Positions 1-11,550 of a stretch of DNA of 11,550 nucleotides are shown piece after piece. The position numbers and the translations under genes were made by a program. Position 1 is the first letter of the stretch. Every line of letters starts with the position of its first letter. Source of the DNA: a virus. The stretch lies in UHGV virus genome UHGV-0196030, one strand, 5' to 3'. The notes beneath the pieces are model-generated. The model did not search any database, was not told the DNA's origin, and was given only the letters and a program-made list of their open reading frames with translations.

Positions 1-673
1 GTACGCAGCCCTGAGTTGGGATGTTGAATTTGTCGATCACGCCATAAATGGTATCCAGCACGCGGCTTAAGTTTTCCACGTCGTCAGTTACCGGGTTAAC
101 GCCGATCACCGCATCGCCCACCCCAAAGGAAAGCCCTTCATAGATTTGCGCAGCGATACTTTGCACGTCGTCACGGGTATCGTTCGGCTGCAAACGGGCG
201 CTAAAGGTGCCCGGAATACCGATGGTGGTATTGGCCTTTTTGATTACCGGCATTTTCTTCGCGCCGTAGATCAGGTCCGCGTTGGAGCAAATCTTCGCTA
301 CCGCCGCGACCACTTCCGAGGTCAGCCCTTTGCGGGTAAAGGCAATGTCGTCCACGCTGGTTTCATCGCTCAGCACATACTCACGCAGTTCGCTGATGCT
401 CCAGTTTTTAATCTGGTTGTAGGCCGTTTCGTTAACGTCGTCCTGAATCAGCCGCGTCACGCAGTCATCTTCATAGGCAATCACCGGATTATTGCGGATG
501 TCCGCTACGGTCATTTCCGACAACACCTGCTTTGCCGCCACGCGCTCCTGTGAGCTTGCCGCTGCAACGCCCGCCAGCACATCCCCCGAACGCAGTTCGT
601 TGGCTTTAGCCAGCACCTCTTTTACATCCTTAAACTGATATACATTGCCGAACAATGTGGTCTTTAGTTTCAT
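1..673 (-). CDS. eutB: Ethanolamine ammonia-lyase large subunit EutB, N-terminal ~224 codons (gene continues past the window start)
   Basis: Reverse-complement translation from the ATG at 673..671 reads MKLKTTLFGNVYQFKDVKEVLAKANELRSGDVLAGVAAASSQERVAAKQVL..., which I recognise as the EutB N-terminus. The frame stays open to position 1. A GAGGGAA Shine-Dalgarno lies 5-11 nt upstream on the minus strand. Confidence 0.9.
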   Translation of the reverse strand, partial: MKLKTTLFGNVYQFKDVKEVLAKANELRSGDVLAGVAAASSQERVAAKQVLSEMTVADIRNNPVIAYEDDCVTRLIQDDVNETAYNQIKNWSISELREYVLSDETSVDDIAFTRKGLTSEVVAAVAKICSNADLIYGAKKMPVIKKANTTIGIPGTFSARLQPNDTRDDVQSIAAQIYEGLSFGVGDAVIGVNPVTDDVENLSRVLDTIYGVIDKFNIPTQGCV

Positions 674-684
674 AAGTCGTTCCC

Positions 685-717
685 TCAGGAAGAAGTGATG
701 AGTAACATTTTTCACAG
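685..717. repeat. Left junction: imperfect copy of the eutA 3' end (attL-like) just upstream of the eutB start
   Basis: TCAGGAAGAAGTGATGAGTAACATTTTTCACAG resembles the genuine eutA 3' end at 10688..10720 (TCAGGAAGGAAATGCGAGTGATTTCACCGTCAC): the first 8 nt are identical, then shared TG, GAGT and TTTCAC blocks with indels. Aligned by eye. Confidence 0.45.
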
Positions 718-957
718 CCTGCAAACAATTCTATTTCATCGTTAGCCCTTGTCCTGTAAGGTAATTGGCTTAACACGCCCGCTATTCATCCTGCCGAACG
801 CAACCGAACGCGCCGGATACATGAGCGGGGTTATCGAGTCGTTAGATCGAGGTATCCGGTTTTAAGCAAGACACCACTGACAGCAAAGGGCATAGAGGCC
901 GCCCAGCCGAAGGACAAGCCCTACAAACTCACCGATTCACTAACACCTGGCCTGTTC

Positions 958-2067
958 TTGCTGGTCCATCCCAATGGCAGCAAATACTGGCGATTCCGGT
1001 ACTGGATAGACAAGAAAGAGCGATTACAGGCCATCGGGGTATATCCGCTGATTAGCCTCAAGGAAGCCCGCAAACGCGCCACAGAGAGCCGTTTACTGAT
1101 AGCCCAGGGAATTGACCCAATGGAAGAAGCACGCAAGGAGAAAGCCATTGATGCGCTCAACATGGCGGCAAGTTTTAAGACCGTGGCGGAGGACTGGCTG
1201 ACTACTAGGGTGAGCGGTTGGTCAGAGTCCTACACGAAACAGGTCAGGACGGCGCTGAAAAATGACGTTTACCCCGTGCTGGGTAAGCGTTCAATCGTCG
1301 ATATAACCGCCCGTGATGTTCTGGCATTGCTTCAGAAGAAAGAGCGCACCGCGCCGGAGGCGGCCCATAAGTTACGCCAGCGTATCGGGGAGATCTTCAA
1401 ATTTGCCGTTATCACCGAACTGGTTAACCGGAATCCGGTTGCAGATCTGGATACGGCATTGAAAGCCAGACGCCCAGGCCATAACGCATGGATACAAATT
1501 AGTGAAATTCCGGCCTTCTACAAAGCCCTTGAGAGAGCCGGGAGCGTACAGATTCAGACGGCAATACGCTTGCTTATATTGACGGCATTAAGAACGGCAG
1601 AATTGCGAAAAATGCGGTGGGAATGGGTAGATCTGAGCACGGCAACAATCACCCTACCCGCTGAAGTCATGAAGGCCCGCCGACCGCACGTAGTCCCGTT
1701 ATCCCGGCAAGCGGTCGAGCTATTACAGGACCAGTTTACCCGCAGCGGGTACAGTGCTTTCGTCTTTCCGGGCCGATTCATGGATAAGCCATTGTCAGCA
1801 AGTGCCATCCTTAAAGCCCTGGAGCGTATCGGGTACAAGTCGATCGCCACTGGTCATGGTTGGCGGACCACCTTTTCAACGGCGCTTAATGAGTCTGGCA
1901 GATACTCACCAGACTGGATCGAAATCCAATTGGCCCACGTTCCGAAAGGTGTGCGCGGTGTATATAACCAGGCCGCCTACCTGAAGCAACGGCGGGTAAT
2001 GATGCAGGACTACGCGGACGCTATTGTTCTGATATTGGCTGGTGACGGTAATCCGCTGGAACCGTGA
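958..2067 (+). CDS. intZ: P4-family tyrosine integrase (site-specific recombinase); ORF shown from the first in-frame TTG, but N-terminal homology continues upstream to about 868
   Basis: N-terminal arm-binding-type sequence ...KDKPYKLTDSLTPGLFLLVHPNGSKYWRFRYWIDKKERLQAIGVYPLISLKEARKRATESRLL... and C-terminal catalytic region ...HGWRTTFSTALNESGRYSPDWIEIQLAHVPKGVRGVYNQAAYLKQRRVMMQDYADAI (H-x-x-R and catalytic Tyr as in P4 Int). Symbol given by locus analogy to K-12 CPZ-55, not by sequence identity check. Confidence 0.88.
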   Translation: MLVHPNGSKYWRFRYWIDKKERLQAIGVYPLISLKEARKRATESRLLIAQGIDPMEEARKEKAIDALNMAASFKTVAEDWLTTRVSGWSESYTKQVRTALKNDVYPVLGKRSIVDITARDVLALLQKKERTAPEAAHKLRQRIGEIFKFAVITELVNRNPVADLDTALKARRPGHNAWIQISEIPAFYKALERAGSVQIQTAIRLLILTALRTAELRKMRWEWVDLSTATITLPAEVMKARRPHVVPLSRQAVELLQDQFTRSGYSAFVFPGRFMDKPLSASAILKALERIGYKSIATGHGWRTTFSTALNESGRYSPDWIEIQLAHVPKGVRGVYNQAAYLKQRRVMMQDYADAIVLILAGDGNPLEP

Positions 2068-2074
2068 ACTATAA

Positions 2075-2100
2075 GGCCGGATTCGTCCGGCTTTTCTTTC
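2075..2100 (+). terminator. Rho-independent terminator after the integrase gene
   Basis: Stem GCCGGA (2076..2081) / TCCGGC (2086..2091), loop TTCG, followed by TTTTCTTTC, 8 nt after the TGA stop at 2065..2067. Confidence 0.6.
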
Positions 2101-2104
2101 GCTA

Positions 2105-2135
2105 ATTATTCCATTATTCCAATTAAGTGGAATAA
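2105..2135. promoter_or_regulatory. Operator-like site: tandem ATTATTCC x2 followed by a perfect 8-bp inverted repeat TTATTCCA-n6-TGGAATAA
   Basis: ATTATTCC at 2105..2112 and 2113..2120. Inverted-repeat arms at 2114..2121 and 2128..2135 with a 6-bp spacer, in an AT-rich intergenic region upstream of the 2277 CDS. Confidence 0.35.
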
Positions 2136-2214
2136 ATTATTCAATATCAAGAACTTAAATCCATGTTTGCAACGAAAGATCCAGAGTTCGAAAATAGGAT
2201 CAACACAAATAAAA

Positions 2215-2244
2215 GCCCCCGGCATGTTGCAGCATTCCGGGGGC
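2215..2244 (+). promoter_or_regulatory. Stable stem-loop in the putative 5' leader of the 2277 CDS
   Basis: 8-bp GC stem GCCCCCGG (2215..2222) / CCGGGGGC (2237..2244) with a 14-nt loop, about 30 nt upstream of the AAGGAG Shine-Dalgarno. Confidence 0.3.
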
Positions 2245-2276
2245 GGTATGAGAAACAAGCTAAAGGAGAATTTCTC

Positions 2277-2786
2277 ATGTCTGATATGCTAGCAGTAGAA
2301 CAAGAAACAAACAATGATGTTCGTCAATTTTTAAATAAAATTAACGAGTTACGGAATAAAGCACCCAAAAACGAAGAGACTAAACACGAAGAACACACGC
2401 CAGATCATTACGAGGCAAAACAGCAGGAGCAAGCCTGGCGTGGCAACCTGCGCTACCTGGATACATTAAACCGACTTGATGAGGTATTGCCTCGCAAACT
2501 GTACGAAAGGTGGGAGAAAGAACATACAGTCAACGACGAGGCCGTGCTACGCGCCCTTTGCTACTTTGCTGGTACTGGCAAAAACTCACAGTTGGGATGG
2601 TGCAGGGTTGGCAGGGGAACAATCGACAAGCGAGCCAGGCTATCAAAAAACACGGTTAAAAAATGCCTCGATCGTCTGGTCCACCACTTCAAACTGGTTG
2701 AGCGTACTGAAGGCTATATACCCGGATCGGCAGAAAGGGAATGCAACGAGTACCAGCTATTATTCAAGCCGTACAACATGAAATAA
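2277..2786 (+). CDS. Hypothetical protein, 169 aa, with a C-terminal winged-helix-like DNA-binding region (possible replication initiator or regulator)
   Basis: Strong SD AAGGAG (2263..2268) 8 nt before the ATG at 2277; the ORF-track start at 2163 has no SD. C-terminal segment GWCRVGRGTIDKRARLSKNTVKKCLDRLVHHFKLVERTEG looks like a winged helix. Followed by a terminator and an iteron cluster. Confidence 0.55.
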   Translation: MSDMLAVEQETNNDVRQFLNKINELRNKAPKNEETKHEEHTPDHYEAKQQEQAWRGNLRYLDTLNRLDEVLPRKLYERWEKEHTVNDEAVLRALCYFAGTGKNSQLGWCRVGRGTIDKRARLSKNTVKKCLDRLVHHFKLVERTEGYIPGSAERECNEYQLLFKPYNMK

Positions 2787-2794
2787 CGGAATCA

Positions 2795-2817
2795 GGCGGG
2801 CAATGTTCCCGCCTTTT
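2795..2817 (+). terminator. Rho-independent terminator after the 2277..2786 CDS
   Basis: Stem GGCGGG (2795..2800) / CCCGCC (2808..2813), loop CAATGTT, then TTTTCTTT. Confidence 0.65.
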
Positions 2818-2840
2818 CTTTGCCTTAATTCCATGAATTC

Positions 2841-2964
2841 AGGTGGGTCAAAAGTTGCCGTTAAGGTGGGTCAAAAGTTGCCGAGTAAGAATTCTACTAT
2901 TAAGAATTCTAGGCGACGGGAGTTTTTTAGCCTCCCGGTCGGTCATAGAGAGTCGCCTAGAGTT
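2841..2964. repeat. Iteron-like repeat cluster: two identical 20-bp direct repeats, two TAAGAATTCT repeats and a nested palindrome
   Basis: AGGTGGGTCAAAAGTTGCCG at 2841..2860 and 2864..2883, identical, 23 bp centre to centre. TAAGAATTCT at 2886..2895 and 2901..2910. Inverted repeat CTAGGCGAC (2909..2917) / GTCGCCTAG (2952..2960) enclosing hairpin CGGGAG-n9-CTCCCG. Confidence 0.6.
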
Positions 2965-3793
2965 AAAACAGAAGAATTGTTTCGCCGCCTGATAGGTCGG
3001 CTGGTTGCGAGCATTAACCATGCTGATTAGCGCAATCATTTCCAGCAAGCTGGAAACGCCCATTCACTCACGCACAACCTGAACAGCAGACCAACAGAAC
3101 ATCATGGCGATTCGTTCATGGGTAGCGCGGTATATCTCAAATGTGACGCCTCTTGTTGCTGGACCTTCGGAAAACACCATGGAGACGAAAGTATTCAATC
3201 TGGTCTGGCAGCAGGGAGAGCTTCGCTTCGCTCGTCTCCTGGGGCCAATGCTCAATGAAACGACGTAAGGCACGGAGCGCTCACCATAGGCAGACACATA
3301 AACATCTGAGAGCGCACCTTCTATCGCGCTACGCGCTCAATAAAAACCAACGACACCGCCATCCTGCCTGACCGATGTTTTTAACCAGCGTATACAGAGA
3401 AACAGACAATAGCATGAAATCAGCGTATATCCAGGTGCAGACGGCACTATCACACAACGCACAGCAGGCTTAAGTGACCACTCAGGAAACTTTATCCCCG
3501 CCACCGACTAACGCAAACCGTCCTGACCGCGCCAAATTCGAAAGGAATGCTACCTTAAACGCGATTAACACACATAAGCGCCACACTTACTTACCTGAAA
3601 ACTTCACAGCGTCACAGCGCGTTTTAGACACGTTAAAATCGATGCGATTTCATTAAATTTTTTTCACTCGCCTGAATGGTGGCAATCAGGACTGATTGCA
3701 ACATTGCCCCGCCTCGATACTGAGCGCATAATAAATACATACATTAAGCGGAAACGTCATTAACAGATTTGGAAAAACAATGGGTTACACATC

Positions 3794-4414
3794 ATGCGCA
3801 TATCAAAGCAGCAACGCCAAATCCTCGACTATCTGGCAGAAAACGAATCAATCACAGCACGCCAGGCGGCAGATCTCGTTTATGGCGGCAACGTTACCCG
3901 CGTACAGGTCGATGCAGCCCGCCGTTCACTGATGGCGCTGGTCAGCAATGGGCTAATCATGAAACAAGGCCGCGCTTTCGTAGCTGAAAGACATATCAAT
4001 CACGCTTATAGCCAGGACGTTGAAGAGTTGCGCCGTCAGATCCTTTGGGTATTCAGCAAAGAGGGGCAGGACTATCTCATTTCTGAGCGTCCAAATTACG
4101 CCGCCAAAGAGTTAACAGTAAGCGGATTGTCGTGCGCACTGGATTATCTTGTCGGTGAAGGTTGCGTTACTTACAAGCAGCTATGGCACGCCCTGAACAC
4201 GCTTGTAGAAGATGGTTTACTCATTGCCACGCGTGAGAATATCGAATACTGGATAATGCCGCGTTCAGGTCGCCGCAATCATGCGCGGTATATTTCAGGC
4301 AACAAATACAGAACGCCTGACTTTAATCCGACACAGGAAGATCGGGACCGTGCCGAAATGATGTGCAGGGAACGGGAGAAAAGATTCATGGACAAGTTGT
4401 TTTCGATGCGGTGA
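3794..4414 (+). CDS. Hypothetical protein, 206 aa, with an N-terminal winged-helix/HTH-like region (putative DNA-binding protein)
   Basis: Long ORF with protein-like composition. N-terminal ISKQQRQILDYLAENESITARQAADLVYGG...RSLMALVSNGLIMKQGR resembles MarR/winged-helix recognition helices. Weak SD. A strong terminator follows directly. Confidence 0.5.
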   Translation: MRISKQQRQILDYLAENESITARQAADLVYGGNVTRVQVDAARRSLMALVSNGLIMKQGRAFVAERHINHAYSQDVEELRRQILWVFSKEGQDYLISERPNYAAKELTVSGLSCALDYLVGEGCVTYKQLWHALNTLVEDGLLIATRENIEYWIMPRSGRRNHARYISGNKYRTPDFNPTQEDRDRAEMMCREREKRFMDKLFSMR

Positions 4415-4420
4415 ACACAA

Positions 4421-4443
4421 GCGGGCGCAATGCCCGTTTTTTA
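4421..4443 (+). terminator. Rho-independent terminator after the 3794..4414 CDS
   Basis: Stem CGGGC (4422..4426) / GCCCG (4432..4436), loop GCAAT, followed by T6 (4437..4442), 7 nt after the TGA stop. Confidence 0.7.
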
Positions 4444-4583
4444 TTGCCTTATTCCACGTCAGACGAATCAATCTAATCACACCTGAGCAAATGCATTGCC
4501 AAAAATTTAGGCTGTCAGAATGCGTTTTAGCGCGTTTTAAGGGCATCGAATTTTAATTAATTTTGATGCGGTGATTTGCGGGC

Positions 4584-4671
4584 AAAAAAAATCCAGCCGG
4601 AGAGGGCTGGAAATAGAGACATATCGTTGTAGTTATTAACAGATCACATTTTGAGGCTGAGTATTTACCTC
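4584..4671 (-). ncRNA. Putative small antisense RNA (~88 nt) with its own promoter and intrinsic terminator; contains a 14-nt complement of the HNH gene ribosome-binding region
   Basis: Minus-strand promoter-like hexamers: -35 TTGCAC (complement of 4701..4706), 17-bp spacer, -10 GATAAT (complement of 4678..4683). Minus-strand terminator: stem 4592..4598 / 4605..4611 followed by U8 (complement of A8 at 4584..4591). No ORF longer than about 19 codons inside. Contains the complement of 4643..4656, which is identical to 5090..5103 at the HNH Shine-Dalgarno. Confidence 0.3.
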
Positions 4672-4755
4672 ACTAATATTATCGCGCCGTTATGGTGATT
4701 GTGCAAATCATCTCTTCCAATCACAAAAACGTCATATTCGACAATGAAGCCGTGT

Positions 4756-4784
4756 TTGAACACGTAGGACAATGGGAATAAAAT
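4756..4784 (+). promoter_or_regulatory. Candidate sigma70 promoter for the alpA-HNH operon
   Basis: -35 TTGAAC (4756..4761), 17-bp spacer, -10 TAAAAT (4779..4784). Predicted start near 4791, about 90 nt upstream of alpA. Confidence 0.4.
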
Positions 4785-4823
4785 AATTACATAGGGTTTT
4801 TCTCTTGGCCTATTTTTTCATTC

Positions 4824-4868
4824 AGCGGCGGTTGTTTTTCTCCATATTTCCAGCCGCCGCTCCTTTTC
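4824..4868 (+). promoter_or_regulatory. Leader hairpin with a short U-tract upstream of alpA (possible attenuator)
   Basis: Stem AGCGGCGG (4824..4831) / CCGCCGCT (4854..4861), 22-nt loop, followed by CCTTTTCG, then the alpA SD GAGG at 4872..4875. Confidence 0.3.
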
Positions 4869-4883
4869 GAAGAGGTGATGAAA

Positions 4884-5075
4884 ATGAACGACTTTCCCGA
4901 ATTGATAAGCTGCGAACAAGTCGCTCGACTTTTTTGTGTAAGCAAGCGCACGATTCTCAGGTGGGTAGATAAAATCCCCGGCTTTCCAATCCCTGTAAGT
5001 CCTGAAGGAACCCCGCTCCGCTTTATTCGCAGCGAAATTCTCGAGTATTTCTACAGAGGGCACAACCATAAATAA
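4884..5075 (+). CDS. alpA: AlpA-family phage transcriptional regulator / excisionase-like HTH protein (about 63 aa)
   Basis: Small protein with the AlpA-like pattern ...LISCEQVARLFCVSKRTILRWVDKIPGFPIPVSPEGTPLRFIRSEILEYF. SD GAGG at 4872..4875, 8 nt before the ATG at 4884; in-frame GTG 4875 and ATG 4878 sit too close to the SD. Symbol is family-level. Confidence 0.7.
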   Translation: MNDFPELISCEQVARLFCVSKRTILRWVDKIPGFPIPVSPEGTPLRFIRSEILEYFYRGHNHK

Positions 5076-5111
5076 CGAAATAAAATCCCATCACATTTTG
5101 AGGTAAACATC

Positions 5112-5507
5112 ATGACCAATATCGAAAGATTAGAACGCTGTGCCGATATTATGCGGCGCAGATGGATTTATGACCCTGAAGCGGGTTTATTGTTTAGCCG
5201 TGAAACAAAAGACGTTATCAAAGGCAGCATGACCAATAAAGGGCATTTGGTTGTAACGGTACATGAAGGTAAATTCAAAGTGACACTCACCTATCAGAAA
5301 GCCTGCTATGTATACACATACGGCGCTTATGACGAGACATTATATGAAGTGCACCACGTTAATTTGAACAAACAGGATAACCGCATCAAGAATATTCGCC
5401 TGATGCCGAAAGAAAAGCACCGCCGGATACATAAAAACGTCCGCAAACTTATTCGGCTGGGCCACACACAATGGCTTCAACCGCAATTAATTGAACAATC
5501 ACTATAA
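5112..5507 (+). CDS. HNH endonuclease (HNH_3-type), 131 aa
   Basis: Motif YEVHHVNLNKQDNRIKNIRLMPKEKHRRIH matches the H-H-x-N...N-R...N-(I/L)-R signature of phage HNH_3 nucleases. SD GAGG at 5100..5103, 8 nt before the ATG. Confidence 0.6.
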   Translation: MTNIERLERCADIMRRRWIYDPEAGLLFSRETKDVIKGSMTNKGHLVVTVHEGKFKVTLTYQKACYVYTYGAYDETLYEVHHVNLNKQDNRIKNIRLMPKEKHRRIHKNVRKLIRLGHTQWLQPQLIEQSL

Positions 5508-5524
5508 ACACAGGAGTAAATACC

Positions 5525-5788
5525 ATGCATTCATTAGACAGTTATTTTCAGCGCACGACAGCCCCTAAATCAGCTGCCCAGGAACGCCGTGAGGAATTCC
5601 ATGAGAAAGTGATGCGTTCTGCTGATTATATTGCGGACAAGTTCGTGGAAACGGTTCGTCCACTTGTTGATGAAGTAGCTGATAAACTTCAGTCTGAAAT
5701 GCCGGAAGATATGGAAGGCACTGCAAAGCGGCGACTCATTTGCGAATTAAGTCGTCGTTTTGGCGTGTCAATAAGCGCTTTTAAATAA
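5525..5788 (+). CDS. Hypothetical protein, 87 aa
   Basis: Strong SD AGGAG (5512..5516) 8 nt before the ATG. Tightly packed between the HNH gene and the next ORF. Charged, protein-like composition. Confidence 0.5.
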   Translation: MHSLDSYFQRTTAPKSAAQERREEFHEKVMRSADYIADKFVETVRPLVDEVADKLQSEMPEDMEGTAKRRLICELSRRFGVSISAFK

Positions 5789-5810
5789 TCGAAAAAAGGG
5801 GGGAAAGATA

Positions 5811-6353
5811 ATGGACGCATTTGAGGTACTGGCAAATAAAGGCGCGGAACTGGTAGCACAGCGTGATAAAACCGCCAACGAAGGGGAACGCGCACTGCTA
5901 AATAGACAGATTAAAGCGATCCGTATGGCCCAGTTTAAATTAATCAGCAATGAAGTTATCGAAACAATTAAACCGCAGATCCCACAAATCGTTGCTGACG
6001 CTATTAAAGCCGCCGGACTGGAGAAACGCATTGCCGGGCTAAAAACGAACGCAGAGAAAATGGAGATGCACAAACAGAGCGGTGCTCCGAATCCCGATGA
6101 GTACTTCTCACCGGATGTTGAGTTTATGGCGCAGGTTGAGGAACGTCTGGGTAGCTGTCTCACCGAGGAACAGCGTCGCTATTTTGATGGAGTGGATAGT
6201 TCGGCAGGTATTGACCTGAACTCGTATTTCGGTCGTGAAATTGAGCATTTTGATGCCGCCCCGTCTATGCCGGAGCCAGAAACAGAAATGGCCGCCGATC
6301 CTGAAGCTGAGCAACGGAAACGCGTATTCAATGCGATAGGGATTCGGTACTGA
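5811..6353 (+). CDS. Hypothetical protein, 180 aa, acidic C-terminus
   Basis: G-rich SD (AAGGGGGG, 5796..5803) before the ATG at 5811, which lies 22 nt after the previous stop. Codon usage looks coding. No motif recognised. Confidence 0.5.
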   Translation: MDAFEVLANKGAELVAQRDKTANEGERALLNRQIKAIRMAQFKLISNEVIETIKPQIPQIVADAIKAAGLEKRIAGLKTNAEKMEMHKQSGAPNPDEYFSPDVEFMAQVEERLGSCLTEEQRRYFDGVDSSAGIDLNSYFGREIEHFDAAPSMPEPETEMAADPEAEQRKRVFNAIGIRY

Positions 6354-6404
6354 TCGGATAAAAGAAAGCCGGGAATTACCCCGGCTGACTTAACAATGTG
6401 ACCA

Positions 6405-6779
6405 ATGAACAAATCGGACAAGACAAACAGGATAAGCAGTCTCGAAACAATGTTCGGGAACTATATTAGCACAAGTCCGGAGAAAATCATCATGTTGGCA
6501 CTACGCATCATGCAGGGCATCGCTAAGACCCTCGCAGAACATGTCTTAGACCTGAAACATTCGCCACTGAGCAAACAGGCCATGAAGCGCCAAACGCTTC
6601 GTCTGTGGGCTGAATATTCGCTTGGAACTATCAATAAGCTCATCAATATGAAGTCGAAAGATAATGGCAGTGTCCATGAGTGTAACAGCGAAGAAAAGGA
6701 ATTTGTGAAACGCCTGAAGTTAATCCGCGCCGATATTCACTCACAACTGGCCTCTTGTGGTTGCGATATTGATGACTAA
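6405..6779 (+). CDS. Hypothetical protein (124 aa from ATG 6405; a better-supported start at ATG 6492 would give 95 aa)
   Basis: ATG 6405 has no SD. The in-frame ATG at 6492 is preceded by GGAGA (6479..6483) at 8-nt spacing. The C-terminal region is the same either way. Confidence 0.45.
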   Translation: MNKSDKTNRISSLETMFGNYISTSPEKIIMLALRIMQGIAKTLAEHVLDLKHSPLSKQAMKRQTLRLWAEYSLGTINKLINMKSKDNGSVHECNSEEKEFVKRLKLIRADIHSQLASCGCDIDD

Positions 6780-6808
6780 CAGCGTGCTAACGGGGGGTTA
6801 ATCGCCCC

Positions 6809-6858
6809 TTAGCGATAGCTTAGCTAACTGTTAGTGAGCCTTAGCGACATCTTAGCGA
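6809..6858. repeat. Five helically phased iterons TTAG(C/T)(G/T)A immediately upstream of the terS-like gene (candidate packaging or protein-binding array)
   Basis: TTAGCGA 6809, TTAGCTA 6820, TTAGTGA 6831, TTAGCGA 6841, TTAGCGA 6852: spacing 11, 11, 10, 11 bp. Preceded by a G-rich hairpin-like GGGGGG-TTAAT-CGCCCC at 6792..6808. Confidence 0.55.
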
Positions 6859-6878
6859 CAGTTTAACCGGGGGTAAAT

Positions 6879-7283
6879 GTGGAGACTGAAGATAAAGAAA
6901 TCAATAACTTGCCTGTAAATGGCAACAGGTTAGCGAGAAAAAGGGCCAAATATACCATCGCGCTGGCGGAAGAAATTTGTTTGTTGGTAGCGGAAGGCCA
7001 TAGCCTACGTGAGATCGCGAAGATGCCAGACATGCCATCGTTACGCACTTTAATGCGGTGGCAATATGAACATCCAGATTTCAGAGAGCACATCGGTATT
7101 TTTAAGTGGATTCACGCCCAGGACGCAGCAGAGCAAGCTGTTGAAGCTATCAGAGATGTAGATCTGGAAGCGGAAGACGCGCCACTGAAATTAAAACAGG
7201 CTGAGGCATTAGCCCGCACTTTGTTAGGTCGTGCCAAATTGCTTGAGAGCAAAAACAATCCATTCAACGGGGGTGACAAATGA
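6879..7283 (+). CDS. Phage terminase small subunit (TerS)-like protein, 134 aa, GTG start
   Basis: N-terminal HTH region KYTIALAEEICLLVAEGHSLREIAKMPDMPSLRTLMRWQYEHPDFREHI matches the pattern I recall for TerS-family proteins (Y-T-x-E-L-A-x-x-I-C...G-x-S-L-R-x-I...M-P-S-x-x-T-x-x-R-W). G-rich SD at 6868..6872. Confidence 0.55.
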   Translation: METEDKEINNLPVNGNRLARKRAKYTIALAEEICLLVAEGHSLREIAKMPDMPSLRTLMRWQYEHPDFREHIGIFKWIHAQDAAEQAVEAIRDVDLEAEDAPLKLKQAEALARTLLGRAKLLESKNNPFNGGDK

Positions 7284-7789
7284 GCTTTATGGGTAAACAC
7301 AAGACTGGTGGTAAAGACGACGCACAGGGCTTGTTTAAGGCCGGGAAAAAGGCATCTTTAACGCCGGAAGAAAAAGATAGACAACTACAGCTTAAGCCAT
7401 TCAGCCAGTGGACAAAGCAGGATATCGCGATGTGGCGAGCCGTTAATATTGAACGCTGCCAGGAAGACGTAGACGACGGACTGATGGAAGATTTCGAACT
7501 GGACGATCTGATTAATTGTTGGGCCTTCGAGATCGTCGATGATGCGCTTATCCGTACCCGTACCGCGCCGCCGTGTGAGGAAATGATGCTGGGACTGATG
7601 AAGCCGACTACGGATCTGGTTGTTGGTTACTGTCAGATTGATGGCCTTGATAGCCTTGCCGCCGCCGATACAACCGACTCAATGGAACAAGCCGCACGCC
7701 AGCAACGGAAGATTGAACTGCAACGACGCCTACACCATGAGCGCAACGTACCAGGGCAAGAACTGGAAACCATCCCGCGCCGCCAGTAA
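7280..7789 (+). CDS. Hypothetical protein, 169 aa, translationally coupled to the terS-like gene
   Basis: ATG at 7280 overlaps the terS-like TGA stop (ATGA overlap at 7280..7283). GGGGG (7269..7273) serves as SD. Acidic, Cys-containing protein with no recognised motif. Confidence 0.5.
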   Translation: MSFMGKHKTGGKDDAQGLFKAGKKASLTPEEKDRQLQLKPFSQWTKQDIAMWRAVNIERCQEDVDDGLMEDFELDDLINCWAFEIVDDALIRTRTAPPCEEMMLGLMKPTTDLVVGYCQIDGLDSLAAADTTDSMEQAARQQRKIELQRRLHHERNVPGQELETIPRRQ

Positions 7790-7815
7790 TTTTCGGACAA
7801 GCGGGCGCGCAGCCA

Positions 7816-7841
7816 ACGCCAGGGGCATCCAGACTGGCGGA
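7816..7841 (+). repeat. Hairpin element ACGCCAGGGG-CAGACTGGCGGA, copy 1 (copy 2 at 9976..9999)
   Basis: Stem CGCCAG / CTGGCG conserved in both copies; the loops differ by a 2-nt indel. Each copy lies 10-27 nt after a stop codon (7789 and 9966). Confidence 0.45.
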
Positions 7842-8120
7842 ATATATCAATAGTGCGCATTAGATACATTATGTGAAAAACGACATGAGTATATATCAGT
7901 ACTGATTTTACTGGAAAAACTTGATTTTCAGTATCAATCCCAAAGAAGTATGGCTAATGCAGCTTTATAAGCAATTGATTCTATTAAGCGATGTTTTTTG
8001 TGATTGGTTGAAGCAAACCGGAATACGAAGACAGTGAAGCGGCAATAAACTGTTTCAATGTGAAATTATCAGAGTAAACAACAATTTTGGAGGTGTCCGC
8101 ACAACGCGGATAGCAATATC

Positions 8121-9966
8121 ATGAGTGGAAATCTTGGGACCATTTACTATGAGGTGGACGCCCGCACGGGTAAGCTACTGATGGCACAAGAAGAAGCGAA
8201 TCAGGCTTTTGATGCCATTGAGCGTGGCGCAAAACGTGCTGATAACGGCGTCAAAAAACTGAATACGCAGATGACCAAAACGTCTGCCGCAGTAAAATCA
8301 AATTTCTCATTTGCAATCAAAAACGCATCCTACCAGATAGCAGACCTTGCTACACAACTTCAGATGGGCGGTAATGCCATCCAGGTCTTTGCCGTTCAAG
8401 GGGCGCAGCTTGTCGCTGCATTTGGTACTGGCGGTGCGGTCATGGGTGCGGTCATGGCTATTGGCGGGGCAATTGCCAACAGCCTTACGGATAACATGGA
8501 TGACGCCACGGATAGAAAAATACATTGATGCGCTACTCCGCTACAGCAACGAGGTGCTAACAGCAGAAGAGCGTCAAACGGCGTTAAACGAGGCACTGAA
8601 TGCTGGGGCGTCTGCGGCAGCAATTGCCACTGGCGAAATGCTGATTAAACAGGAGCAGATCAAGCAAGAGAAGCTAAAAGGCAATGAGAACGCTGCGCTT
8701 GATATGGCGCTGGCTGAGGGCAAGTTAACGAAGGCGGATCACGATAGGCTTGTCCAGATGCGAGAAGAAACAAAGGAATTGGAGGAGAACAAACGCAAGG
8801 AAGAAGAGAACGCCAGGGAGAAAGAACGAGCAGCCAAACAGGCAGAAAGCGCGGCGAAACAGGCGGCGAAACAGGCGCAACGCGAACTTGAACAGCTTCA
8901 GAAACGCGGGCAAGGTGTAGCTGACAAGTACAACGTAGAGGGCGCAGCACAGCGTAAACTAAAAGAAGACCAGGAAGCGCTAAATGCAGCAATGGAAGCT
9001 GGCAAAATCAGCACAGAACAATATAACGCAGCGTGGGCCGGACTCCTGAGAACGGAGGCGCAACGCAAACAGCAAGCCGGATGGGATAATCTTGTCAGCC
9101 GGGAAGATAAGCTAAAAGGCCGTGTTGACCCAATCCAGCAGGTGATGAACGAATGGAATGTTCGCAAGCAAATGATGCTCGATTTAGGCGTCACTGAGGC
9201 AACCATGCGGCAAGCAGAGATCGACCACAAAGAACGAATTCTTAACCTTCAGTGGCAGCAATGGCAGGCGCAAAGCGATACTAACGCGCTTGTAGGTAAC
9301 ATGATTGATGGCCTCGCTTCCGGTGCTGGTAGCGCATTTACCGGACTGCTTAACGGATCTCAATCGTTCCAGGAATCACTTGCTAACATCGGAACGACCA
9401 TTATCAACCAGGTTGTTGGAAGCCTTGCGCAGATGGGGGCGGAATACGTTAAACAGCTTGTTATGGGTGAGGTTGCGCAGAAATCAGCCTCCGCATCAGC
9501 TACTGCAACGGCAGCGGCAACAGGCGCATCAATCGCATCATCAATGGCCCCAGCAGCAGCGGCGACAGCAACCGCGACAATGGGTACGGCCCCGATGGTG
9601 GCGATGTCTGCGATGTCGGCATTAATGACTGGCATTACAAGCCTATTTGGCGGACGTCGCTACAACGGCGGCGCGGTTAATGGCGGCAATATGTATCGAG
9701 TCGGTGAAAACAAAGTACCTGAACTATTCCAGACCAATAACGGACGGCAGTACATGATTCCGGGTGAGAATGGTCGCATCATTCCTGGTCGTGATATTGG
9801 TGGCGGTAACGTTAGCATAAACGCGCCTATAACCGTTTACCCACAAAACGGTTGGACCGAACAGGATAGCAAGGCATTGCAGCAGACGATTGAGAATACA
9901 GCGATGCGGTTGATGCAGAGAGAATCAACCAGGCCGGGCGGAATGCTCCAGGGTCGCCGCCGTTAA
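8121..9966 (+). pseudogene. Lambda gpH-like tail tape-measure gene, split by a frameshift near 8516..8528 into 8121..8528 and a second frame running to 9966
   Basis: N-terminal part (...YQIADLATQLQMGGNAIQVFAVQGAQLVAAFGTGGAVMGAVMAIGGAIANSL) resembles the lambda H region FTDVATQLAGGQSPWLILLQQGGQV. Downstream frame has coiled-coil KEEENAREKERAAKQAESAAKQAAKQAQRELEQLQKRG and a Gly/Ala/Thr-rich C-terminus ending GGMLQGRRR (lambda H ends GGLFSGGGR). The two frames are offset by +1, with an A5 run at 8516..8520 just before the frame-0 stop. No other tail genes are present. Confidence 0.6.
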
Positions 9967-10136
9967 CCAAATCCCACGCCAGGGGAACAGACTGGCGGAC
10001 CTTCAAAGACGGTCGCACACCGTGTTTAACATAATTTATTGTTTTTTGCTTGCTCTTATTATTGCAGCCGTTAGAGTTGGCGTGGCAGTTTTTCACCTGT
10101 TTCGCGTGTTGCTGTGTTTTTGGGGAAGAAAAACAA

Positions 10137-10232
10137 ATGAGAAGGCTTATATACCTGGTATTTATGCTATTTGCTATCGGGCAAGCCATAATTTTTATCA
10201 CAATGCTGATCTGTCTGATGCTCTTTGGTTAA
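10137..10232 (+). CDS. Small hydrophobic peptide, 31 aa (MRRLIYLVFMLFAIGQAIIFITMLICLMLFG): candidate small membrane protein or type I toxin-like peptide
   Basis: SD GGGGAAG (10122..10128) 8 nt before the ATG at 10137. Single predicted transmembrane helix after an N-terminal RR. The stop is followed within 10 nt by an intrinsic terminator. Confidence 0.4.
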   Translation: MRRLIYLVFMLFAIGQAIIFITMLICLMLFG

Positions 10233-10240
10233 CTCCACCA

Positions 10241-10260
10241 GGACCCGCGACGGGTTTTTA
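10241..10260 (+). terminator. Rho-independent terminator after the small hydrophobic ORF
   Basis: Stem ACCCG (10243..10247) / CGGGT (10251..10255), loop CGA, followed by TTTTT. Confidence 0.55.
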
Positions 10261-10431
10261 TACCATCATTATTAAATCTATTAATAATCATCAAACCATA
10301 ATTAGCACAACTTATAATCGAGCAAAAATCACACAACCTTGATAAGTTGAGCTAATGGCTATATGTTTTTCTGATGAAATCCTAATGGCGAAAACTTGCG
10401 ACGATACCGAAAAAACCGCGAAAATTGAAGT

Positions 10432-10541
10432 GTTCTTTCTTTTTTTGTTTTTTATTTTTTTATTTTCTCTTTTTCTTCTCTTTCCGGTTCTCTTCTTTTT
10501 CTGGTTTTGGTTTTTTCCTTTTTTATTTTTATTCTTTCTTC
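10432..10541. repeat. Polypyrimidine (T/C-rich) low-complexity tract of about 110 bp; polypurine on the minus strand
   Basis: GTTCTTTCTTTTTTTGTTTTTTATTTTTTTATTTTCTCTTTTTCTTCTCTTTCCGGTTCTCTTCTTTTTCTGGTTTTGGTTTTTTCCTTTTTTATTTTTATTCTTTCTTC; strongly pyrimidine-biased, with only scattered purines. Confidence 0.7.
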
Positions 10542-10687
10542 AGGGTTGTGCTAAAACACACCAAAACATTTTCGCCACAAAAGCGTTAATTTCATCCTGC
10601 CAGACCATTCACTTTCACCGGATACACAGCCGGATATATTCCCACTAACACCCCACCACCCAGCGCCACGCCTGATAACTACCGTAT

Positions 10688-10720
10688 TCAGGAAGGAAAT
10701 GCGAGTGATTTCACCGTCAC
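10688..10720. repeat. Right junction: the genuine eutA 3' end, partner of the imperfect repeat at 685..717 (attR-like)
   Basis: TCAGGAAGGAAATGCGAGTGATTTCACCGTCAC includes the eutA stop codon (TCA on +, TGA on minus). See the left-junction repeat. Confidence 0.45.
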
Positions 10721-11550
10721 CGGCACAACCGATCCGCCAAAAAGAGGCGTACCAATGTCGATATAGTCCCCCGCGCGGACAATCACTTCGTCAATGACTG
10801 CCAACGGGAGTTGTTGTAGCTGTGGGCGCAACAACATGCCCAGAGCTTTACCAAAGTCCTGCCCGGCCACCACCAGCAGGGGATGCGGATTCGGAAAACG
10901 CGCGACGAAATCGACCAGCGCGTTGATGACCGTCAGTACCGCGGCGTAACGCACAGGCAGCGAGGCGGGAAGCGCCAGCACGTACGCGTCAGTTTTGGGA
11001 TCAAGATCCAGCTGAAGCAGCGCCTGTTGCCAGGCACTCACCAGATCCGTTTCATCAATCGGGATCGCCACCGGCAAATTGCGCAGCGGCAGTTGTACGC
11101 CCTCCAGCCAGATTGTGCTGCCAGAGAGCGAAAGGGTATGTGCACCCGCGCCAATCACCGTGGCGCGTACGGTTTGCGCCGGAAACTGCACATTCATCTC
11201 ACGCAGGCGCGGATGGTCATGCAGCGCCGTTGCCAGAAGTGGGCCAATATCGGCAAAACAGAACGGGTCGGCGGGCTGGTGGCGATAACATTCGCCCACG
11301 CCTCCAGAAAGCGTAATGATTTCGGGCGTAACACCTGCGGGCAGCAAACCGGTTTGCATCAATGCCTGCGCGAGCGGCGAAAGCGTTCCGTCAATCACTT
11401 CGACAATCAGCGCCGCCATCCGCCGGGTAACCTGCACCAGCTGCGCGCCGGTCAGCGAACGGGCGTCAGTGCCTGCACCGAAGCACTCATCCACAATCAT
11501 CTGCCCCGGTTTATGAGCGTAAACCACGCGCCCGTGGCTGTCGGTTTCCA
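10688..11550 (-). CDS. eutA: Ethanolamine utilisation protein EutA (ethanolamine ammonia-lyase reactivase), C-terminal ~287 codons; gene continues past the window end
   Basis: Minus-strand frame open from the window end to the stop at 10688..10690, ending ...GTPLFGGSVVPVTVKSLAFPS. Lies directly upstream of eutB in operon orientation, as in the eut operon order eutA then eutB. Confidence 0.85.
   Translation of the reverse strand, partial: ETDSHGRVVYAHKPGQMIVDECFGAGTDARSLTGAQLVQVTRRMAALIVEVIDGTLSPLAQALMQTGLLPAGVTPEIITLSGGVGECYRHQPADPFCFADIGPLLATALHDHPRLREMNVQFPAQTVRATVIGAGAHTLSLSGSTIWLEGVQLPLRNLPVAIPIDETDLVSAWQQALLQLDLDPKTDAYVLALPASLPVRYAAVLTVINALVDFVARFPNPHPLLVVAGQDFGKALGMLLRPQLQQLPLAVIDEVIVRAGDYIDIGTPLFGGSVVPVTVKSLAFPS

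Follow-up and report, generated by a model that had tools for sequence, protein, structure and literature searches.

A CPZ-55-family island at the stop codon of eutA in Escherichia coli and its possible kinship with phage satellites

INTRODUCTION

The stretch of DNA considered here, 11,550 nucleotides (nt) of the virus genome UHGV-0196030 which we call the window in its full length, carries parts of two neighboring genes of the eut operon, eutA and eutB, that are held apart by an integrated island of about 10 kb related to the element CPZ-55 of Escherichia coli K-12. The 5' part of eutB occupies positions 1-673 on the minus strand according to the RefSeq annotation of E. coli MB19, and its start codon at 673 is the reverse complement of 671-673 (CAT on the plus strand). 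The 3' part of eutA, read from the minus strand like eutB, extends over 10688-11550 and is native sequence up to its stop codon at 10688 (TCA, plus-strand 10688-10690). All genes annotated inside the insert are located on the plus strand. RefSeq gives the same order for E. coli MB19 and 20AR0354, with eutB followed by a tyrosine integrase gene, further genes on the plus strand and finally eutA, and the window is 99.9% identical to both genomes. The original prediction, made from the letters of the window, had described two minus-strand eut genes separated by about 10 kb of plus-strand genes, and this arrangement holds in its coordinates and agrees with the annotation of MB19.

Earlier publications have reported the insertion of CPZ-55 at this locus, the 8-bp duplication that accompanies it, the nature of the site as a hotspot and the loss of eutB expression. 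CPZ-55 lies directly after the stop codon of eutA with a duplication of the 8 bp TCAGGAAG, it leaves eutA and eutB unchanged and it is present in ~8% of strains (PMC6379469). The eutA/eutB site was furthermore described as a prophage insertion hotspot, with a "novel prophage" at this position in a urinary isolate (PMC6652756). What is new here is the site-specific insertion with four conserved CCGGATA motifs as candidate arm sites, and a gene set differing from that of K-12, which includes an AlpA-like regulator, an HNH endonuclease, an Sf6-type small terminase and a full-length tape-measure homolog. Also new are a conserved candidate small RNA at a terminator, the position of the mEp021 group as closest phages for the tape-measure and terminase genes, the purifying selection on these two genes across diverged islands and the decay of the window copy.

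INSERTION SITE AND ENDS OF THE ISLAND

The boundaries of the insert were derived from a synthetic empty site of 600 nt, in which window positions 385-684 were joined to 10688-10987. Many E. coli genomes match this sequence with 100% identity over its full 600 nt, and a contiguous eutA-eutB junction is present in 4965 of 5426 complete genomes. Since the contiguous junction matches the synthetic empty site, the insert comprises exactly positions 685-10687, corresponding to 10,003 bp. In the uninterrupted state the junction maps to 674-684 joined to 10688 onward, and the native 11-nt spacer between eutA and eutB (plus-strand AAGTCGTTCCC, 674-684, minus-strand feature) is contiguous with the eutA stop codon in these 4965 genomes, as anticipated by the reading of the left end as the native junction from eutA stop to eutB start. 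The proposal that integration took place at the extreme 3' end of eutA is likewise borne out by the empty-site comparison and by the integrase that the element carries. An IntZ-type junction was found in 394 of the 5426 genomes and the contiguous empty site is missing in 459, counts that agree with the published prevalence of ~8%.

The 8-bp direct repeat TCAGGAAG occurs just twice in the window, at 685-692 as the left copy (attL core, the crossover region) and at 10688-10695 as the right copy (attR core), which includes the stop codon of eutA; the core thus consists of this stop codon and 5 further nt. The same core is found in nine of nine family loci. From 10688 rightward the window consists of native eutA, and up to 692 it consists of native eutB and spacer, which places the crossover within the 8-bp core. 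The two ends had been interpreted as diverged copies of the eutA 3' end, with a variant 3' end brought or left by the element. This part of the prediction has to be given up: only the 8-bp core is duplicated, the right copy is untouched native eutA up to the stop codon, the EutA protein is unchanged and no variant eutA 3' end is in use. From the imperfect likeness that had been noticed between 685-717 and 10688-10720 the identical 8-bp core remains, and the similarity beyond it is weak (p ~0.03-0.04), as the global alignment score of 693-717 against the eutA end is reached by 3-4% of shuffled sequences or of random 30-mers from the window. The segment 693-717 is absent from empty sites and conserved among family members, and it is the core-proximal attP flank of the element itself, for which the additional similarity to the eutA end is marginal. 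This similarity would be consistent with integrase sites flanking the core in attP and attB, and it could also be due to chance. A tRNA scan found no tRNA gene at the att site.

INTEGRASE AND MODE OF RECOMBINATION

The IntZ-type tyrosine integrase is encoded at 817-2067 on the plus strand and contains an arm-binding domain (Arm-DNA-bind_3, PF13356), a core-binding domain (Phage_int_M, PF22022) and a catalytic domain (Phage_integrase, PF00589), all of which score above the Pfam threshold. The ends were compared in nine loci, namely the window, MB19, ET881, K-12 and five others, and the core, the left flank and four CCGGATA motifs are common to all nine. Two of these motifs are candidate left-arm integrase sites (813-819, plus strand; 853-859, minus strand) and two, in direct orientation on the plus strand, are candidate right-arm sites (10618-10624 and 10630-10636). 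CCGGATA occurs five times in the window, compared to 0.98 copies expected, and four of the five copies are located within 175 bp of the ends. The left-arm motifs lie 129 and 169 bp from the left end, the second inverted, in eight of nine loci (119 and 159 bp in K-12), and the right-arm motifs lie 70 and 58 bp from the right end in all nine. These four conserved motifs are likely arm-type binding sites of the integrase. Their spacing, taken together with the domain architecture of the integrase, argues for site-specific recombination of the lambda type, in which the IntZ-type integrase would have recombined attP of the element with attB of the chromosome within the 8-bp crossover region covering the eutA stop codon. 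Both eut genes stay intact and are separated by 10 kb of oppositely oriented genes. In tyrosine integrases such as lambda Int, an overlap of 7-8 bp is the normal length, and the repeat found here falls into this range.

For CPZ-55 a transposon-like insertion was proposed, the 8-bp repeat being a target-site duplication (PMC6379469). An 8-bp direct repeat does flank the element without any long att identity, as such a mechanism would have it, and a repeat of this length is also regular as the overlap of tyrosine integrases. The recombinase is of the lambda-Int type with an arm-binding domain and no transposase is present, and instead of terminal inverted repeats the ends carry CCGGATA motifs at fixed offsets. 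Moreover, diverged members of the family, with synonymous divergence (dS) of 0.5-0.9 between their integrases, are inserted at the identical nucleotide with the same 8-bp core, and excision of CPZ-55 is detectable at low frequency, in under 1 in 100,000 cells (PMC3105296). We therefore regard transposon-like insertion as very improbable, and hold it to be near certain that the insert is a CPZ-55-family island integrated at the eutA stop codon.

RELATION TO K-12 CPZ-55 AND TO SISTER ISLANDS

The original prediction had assigned the insertion to the CPZ-55 locus of K-12 and had suspected a larger cargo than in K-12, and the comparison upholds both. The insertion point, the 8-bp core and the integrase family are the same, and CPZ-55 (intZ, yffL-yffS) resembles the window island in its homologous ends, its CCGGATA motifs and the orientation of its genes opposite to eut. 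The two elements differ in size (10,003 bp in the window, 6,790 bp for CPZ-55 at the same position in K-12) and in gene content. At the amino acid level the integrase is 90% identical to IntZ and orf207 is 94% identical to YffL, the identity falling to 53% for the small terminase against YffO, 47% for orf124 against YffM and 27% for orf169 against YffP. K-12 CPZ-55 lacks the AlpA-like gene, the candidate small RNA, the HNH gene, orf87, orf180 and the tape-measure gene, and it has yffN, yffQ, yffR and yffS, which are absent from the window island. The integrases of the window and of K-12 differ with a dS of ~0.9, which indicates separate acquisitions. Judged by its sequence, the window island is a member of the CPZ-55 family, of which it represents a different and larger variant.

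Six further islands at the eutA site range from 9.6 to 14.8 kb, so that all elements seen at this site span 6.8-14.8 kb. Their genes follow one order: an integrase, a gene for a YffL-like or a helix-turn-helix (HTH) protein, an HTH gene, in some of them an HNH gene, small genes, in some of them a terminase gene with an orf169-like gene, a tape-measure gene encoding 726-731 amino acids (aa) and a variable right end. Within the family the ratio of nonsynonymous to synonymous divergence (dN/dS) is 0.08-0.11 for the integrase at a dS of 0.5-0.9, 0.11-0.15 for the HNH gene at a dS of 0.24-1.25, and 0.09-0.13 for the tape-measure gene at a dS of 0.28-0.43 among the 727-aa alleles. The divergence of the integrases is far above that expected for vertical descent within E. 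coli and points to repeated independent acquisition.

Some sister islands carry additional genes. The variable right end of the island in 13P460A contains an AIPR abortive-infection gene (L004, 8266-9972), and in the island L011 a gene for a peptidyl-prolyl isomerase of the cyclophilin type separates orf95 from the terminase gene (L011, 11098-11592). A related mini-island of ~5 kb is present at a second site, ansP/yncG, in three E. coli contigs (L012-L014, about 5721-10800). It encodes an integrase, a 212-aa protein, a 61-aa protein without a domain match, an HNH protein, a 75-aa protein, an Sf6-type terminase and an orf169 homolog, and it has no tape-measure gene.

PHAGE-TYPE GENES AND THE STATE OF THE WINDOW COPY

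One phage-type gene of the island is a homolog of tail tape-measure genes at 8121-9966 on the plus strand, which is a pseudogene in the window and intact with 790 aa in MB19. In the MB19 allele, residues 1-783 of 790 align with PHROG 1538 (E=3.6e-102), and this allele also matches a solved tape-measure protein (PDB 9OCC, chain M; E=4.6e-39); together these matches make a strong case for the assignment. Among phages, the mEp021/mEpimmI group, temperate coliphages of 54 kb (PMC11893012), has the closest tape-measure proteins. Compared to mEp021, the first ~80 residues of the MB19 protein are 51% and the last 360 residues 49% identical, the middle part is unrelated, and the total lengths are similar (790 aa in the island, 781 aa in mEp021). 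A homolog of the Sf6-type small terminase subunit with 134 aa is encoded at 6879-7283 on the plus strand (Pfam PF20901, 2e-13; PHROG 1482; PDB Sf6 gp1, E ~3e-8), and it is 50% identical to TerS of mEp021 in the HTH domain only. The mEp021 group thus contains the closest relatives of the island's tape-measure protein and of its terminase HTH domain. Its members differ from the island in being complete phages that integrate at ydaM, abgT or mppA and not at eutA, and they share no similarity with it at the DNA level; a megablast search of the island against 50,697 phage records gave no high-identity DNA match at all.

The terminase gene is followed at 7280-7789 (plus strand) by orf169, a distant YffP homolog that accompanies the terminase gene also in the islands at the second site. 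A function of orf169 as tail-assembly chaperone was considered and set aside, as islands that have no tape-measure gene also pair the terminase gene with an orf169 homolog. No tail-assembly chaperone was recognized among the island proteins, and scans of all open reading frames (ORFs) with Pfam, PHROGs and NCBIfam found no capsid, portal, large terminase, tail-tube, baseplate or lysis gene. The small terminase gene is immediately preceded by a gap of 100 nt in which an 18-nt repeat similar to CCTTAGCGAYAKCTTAGC occurs three times (6807-6867); these copies could serve as a pac-site or an operator.

Compared to MB19, the window is without 527 nt of the tape-measure gene (junction at 8513-8515 with TAG microhomology; L001, 10016-10542). 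This deletion removes residues 132-307 and leaves 131 native residues that are followed by a frameshift. The tape-measure gene of 20AR0354 is intact like that of MB19, and ET881 and SW071610 have a different deletion in the same region (window 7297-8512). A second lesion concerns the start of the integrase gene, for which the TTG start codon of K-12 and five other islands is changed to TTA in the lineage of the window (862-864). PGAP/RefSeq calls an ATA start at 817, 45 nt upstream of 862, and expression of the integrase may be weak or absent. With a frameshifted tape-measure gene and a lost integrase start, the window copy appears to be disabled and immobilized.

OTHER GENES AND FEATURES OF THE ISLAND

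The YffL homolog of 207 aa, with a possible C-terminal winged helix, is encoded at 2163-2786 on the plus strand; it gave a weak DnaD-like PHROG match, and a PDB sequence search with it gave nothing. AlphaFold models of this protein and of orf169 were poor (mean pLDDT 48 and 57) owing to shallow alignments. Directly after the YffL-like gene and its terminator, and inside a probably spurious ORF of 75 aa, lies a perfect pair of 20-nt direct repeats AGGTGGGTCAAAAGTTGCCG (2841-2860 and 2864-2883), which could act as iteron or as operator. A gene at 3794-4414 (plus strand) encodes a 206-aa protein whose N-terminus gives a weak winged-HTH signal; it is annotated in MB19 as pseudogene of a longer form and it is intact at 206 aa in L011. 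The AlpA/excisionase-like HTH protein of 66 aa (4875-5075, plus strand) is not annotated in MB19. Its Pfam HTH_17 match (3e-05) reaches 24.6 bits and is below the Pfam cut-off of 27, and PHROG excisionase and regulator families match with 1e-6 to 2e-7. The HNH endonuclease of 131 aa (5112-5507, plus strand) is supported by Pfam HNH_3 (3.8e-08) and by PHROGs matches, and it shows a weak similarity to defense-associated HNH models. It is followed on the plus strand by orf87 (5525-5788), orf180 (5811-6353) and orf95 (6492-6779), which are family-specific and have no assigned function; homologs of orf180 are found almost only in Escherichia and Shigella.

Next to the right end, a small hydrophobic protein of 106 aa is encoded as cargo at 10022-10342 (plus strand). 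It is followed by a T-rich low-complexity tract of 120 nt (10429-10548), which is present in the window, MB19, ET881 and EFF60 and has a normal terminator in its place in other islands. An F/L-rich ORF of 97 aa over this tract (10355-10648) is probably not a gene.

A CANDIDATE SMALL RNA AT THE MINUS-STRAND TERMINATOR

The strong minus-strand terminator that had been predicted at 4584-4611 was found as described, its 7-bp stem closing a loop of 6 nt and being followed by eight T. It forms the end of a candidate small RNA of ~90 nt on the minus strand (4584-4672), in which the terminator hairpin occupies 4592-4611 and the U8 tract 4584-4591. A candidate promoter lies upstream on the minus strand, with a -10 box GATAAT at 4678-4683 and a -35-like box at 4702-4707, and the RNA is divergent from the predicted promoter of the AlpA-like gene. 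The promoter boxes, a 5' hairpin, the invariant CUCAAAAUGUGAU and the terminator are kept in six diverged loci. The 5' hairpin varies in sequence between the islands with its structure being kept, and the terminator stem shows a compensatory change from A-U to C-G. These conserved features define a candidate small RNA unit of the element.

The motif at 4643-4656 has a second copy, ATCACATTTTGAGG, at 5090-5103 on the plus strand, which covers the Shine-Dalgarno region 8 nt before the start codon of the HNH gene and is complementary to CUCAAAAUGUGAU of the candidate RNA. The complementarity is exact in three islands, three others have one or two T fewer, and an island without the HNH gene is also without the second copy of the motif. 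Finding a 14-mer twice within 10 kb is not unusual in itself, and the case rests on its position and its conservation. Going by the conserved 14-nt complementarity alone, one idea is that the candidate RNA targets the ribosome-binding site of the HNH gene; a protein operator formed by the repeated 14-mer is an alternative. An RNA duplex energy scan gave no support for the target, with unrealistically long duplexes being allowed and other sites scoring better. An Rfam scan of the whole window gave no relevant match (NsiR1 with E=0.87 is taken as chance). The CI RNA of satellite P4 and the c4 RNA of phage P1 are antisense RNAs that act in immunity. The candidate RNA resembles them in having its own promoter and terminator and a single-stranded stretch complementary to a ribosome-binding region downstream, and it differs from them in lacking any sequence or Rfam relationship.

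PHAGE SATELLITE OR PROPHAGE REMNANT

The family shows several of the properties by which phage satellites are recognized. Its members are of the appropriate size (about 5-15 kb), they have no capsid, portal, large terminase, tail-tube or lysis genes, and they carry a pac-type small terminase of their own. The full-length tape-measure gene that marks satellites of the PLE (phage-inducible chromosomal island-like element) type is provided in the family by the MB19 allele and is frameshifted in the window. Phage-inducible chromosomal islands (PICIs), including the Staphylococcus aureus pathogenicity islands (SaPIs), and phage-inducible chromosomal minimalist islands (PICMIs) are similar to the island in size class, in the integrase at one end, in the AlpA-like regulator, which is a candidate in the island, in having their own small terminase, in the lack of capsid and lysis genes and in a variable accessory end. 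The island differs from them in that no primase/replicase or master repressor was recognized and that it has HNH and tape-measure genes. The PLEs of Vibrio cholerae build chimeric tails with a tape-measure protein that they encode themselves, and the same work mentions predicted tmp genes in PLE-like elements and in capsid-forming PICIs (cf-PICIs) (PMC12987554); a preprint on a mycobacterial satellite likewise describes a satellite-encoded tape-measure protein. Like the PLEs, the island is a small integrative element that lacks most virion genes and has a full tape-measure homolog. It differs from them in its unrelated sequences, its host, its candidate helper (a temperate siphophage, compared to the lytic myophage ICP1) and the lack of an identified tail-assembly chaperone or Rta-like gene. 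In a literature search we found no paper that links CPZ-55 to satellites.

We propose that the CPZ-55 family consists of phage satellites rather than of worn-down prophage remnants, a proposal to which we give a chance close to even or a little short of it. An island of this family would be mobilized by a siphophage of the mEp021 (mEpimmI) type, its small terminase would direct packaging, and its tape-measure protein, with N- and C-termini compatible with the helper and a different middle part, would build chimeric tails as in Vibrio PLEs. The purifying selection on the tape-measure gene in a 10-kb element without other tail genes argues that the protein functions in that context. Helper dependence, packaging and transfer of the members are predicted, the indirect evidence being the purifying selection and the homology to virion genes of the mEp021 group, and the assignment of the mEp021 group as helper is tentative, as the helper may differ between the alleles.

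Several observations weigh against this proposal or parts of it. The 727-aa tape-measure allele of the sister islands has only distant phage relatives, and close counterparts in mEp021 are missing for the other island genes, among them HNH and most of the small ones. No primase, helicase or clear initiator was found in the scans of the island ORFs, which offer only the weak DnaD-like match of the YffL homolog and the AGGTGGGTCAAAAGTTGCCG repeat pair. The promoter and terminator scans of the window were overall at chance level. The junction expected upon excision (CGTAT-TCAGGAAG-AAGTGATG), which was searched with 30-nt and looser 22-nt patterns against viral, metagenome and genome contigs, gave chance hits only and no homology, and scans of IMG/VR with orf180 and the terminase revealed no relatives. 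Finally, the K-12 member is without the tape-measure, HNH and AlpA-like genes, so that persistence as a plain cryptic remnant is also possible in this family.

The literature describes CPZ-55 as a cryptic prophage, and on this explanation the island is a grounded one: a temperate siphophage of full size, resembling mEp021 or of a similar kind, would have inserted at eutA and later been stripped of most of its genome, leaving behind an integrase, the small terminase subunit, a tape-measure gene and further remains without a function of their own. Decay is indeed apparent in the 527-nt frameshifting deletion and the lost integrase TTG of the window copy, in the different deletion that ET881 has in the same region and in the several modules missing in K-12, and the terminase and the tape-measure genes are of phage type. 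Independent decay would, however, not converge on one layout, and eight diverged islands share a compact layout of 7-15 kb in which none has a capsid, portal, TerL, tail-tube or lysis gene; convergent decay of full prophages is thus unlikely. Dead genes would not be expected to show the strong purifying selection seen on the tape-measure, HNH and integrase genes at high dS. The identity of the island genes to the nearest phage reaches only ~50% and is confined to parts of them, none of the 50,697 phage records matched in megablast, and a related mini-island exists at a second site. We consider a grounded prophage an unlikely origin of the family, less probable than a satellite.

Phage satellites and similar islands commonly carry anti-phage defense cargo. 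The island could accordingly be a defense or cargo island that is moved by other means, such as conjugative mobilization or transduction, and that uses its phage-like genes for interference with phages, and the AIPR abortive-infection gene of the sister island and the weak likeness of the HNH protein to defense-associated models would fit such a role. In the window, PADLOC detected no known defense system and scans of the ORFs found no mobilization or relaxase genes. A full-length tape-measure protein with phage-compatible ends next to a small terminase is explained more simply by the use of a helper virion, and interference and satellite transfer are not mutually exclusive. To a defense island moved otherwise we assign a small probability.

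Returning to the satellite proposal, its parts can be joined into one statement: the CPZ-55 family would be satellites of temperate siphophages such as the mEp021/mEpimmI group; its intact members would bring their own Sf6-type terminase and a tape-measure protein for chimeric tails, use a conserved antisense RNA of ~90 nt, paired with the ribosome-binding site of the HNH gene, to silence the late module, and employ the eutA stop codon as dedicated att site, thereby switching off the use of ethanolamine in ~7-8% of E. coli. That all of this holds jointly seems to us somewhat less probable than not. The explanation given for the locus as a whole we judge highly probable, with the satellite part carrying its own, lower grade as stated above.

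CONSEQUENCES FOR THE EUT OPERON AND PERSPECTIVE

The concern that the insertion is polar on eutB is correct and was known before, the evidence being experiments in K-12. In K-12 BW25113 eutB is not induced by ethanolamine and B12 (bioRxiv 10.1101/2024.05.13.593892), and BW25113 is eut-negative due to the prophage insertion, scarless removal of which restores an intact operon and yields a eut+ derivative (PMC11334477). In the window, transcription from the eut PI promoter would not reach eutBCLK, and the minus-strand terminators of the element, including that at 4584-4611, are plausible blocks to read-through from eutA to eutB. A strain with the window island is predicted to be Eut-negative. 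As a separate observation, the left arm contains a promoter-like site on the minus strand that faces eutB (728-755; AGGACA, a 16-nt spacer and TAGAAT). It could give low constitutive transcription of eutB; such matches occur at chance frequency, and the K-12 sequence is weaker at this position.

For the eut operon itself, these findings add little to the published record. A strain carrying the window island would be unable to use ethanolamine, a nutrient relevant in the gut, and because the integrase start is lost and the island looks unable to leave, this defect is probably fixed. The wider meaning lies in the family of elements. The textbook "cryptic prophage" of K-12 may belong to an unrecognized family of coliphage satellites that carries its own tape-measure gene, and satellite-encoded tape-measure proteins were shown only recently, for the Vibrio PLEs. 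If this is true, the family would provide an E. coli model for the manipulation of tail assembly by satellites, for which candidate helpers, the mEp phages, are in culture.

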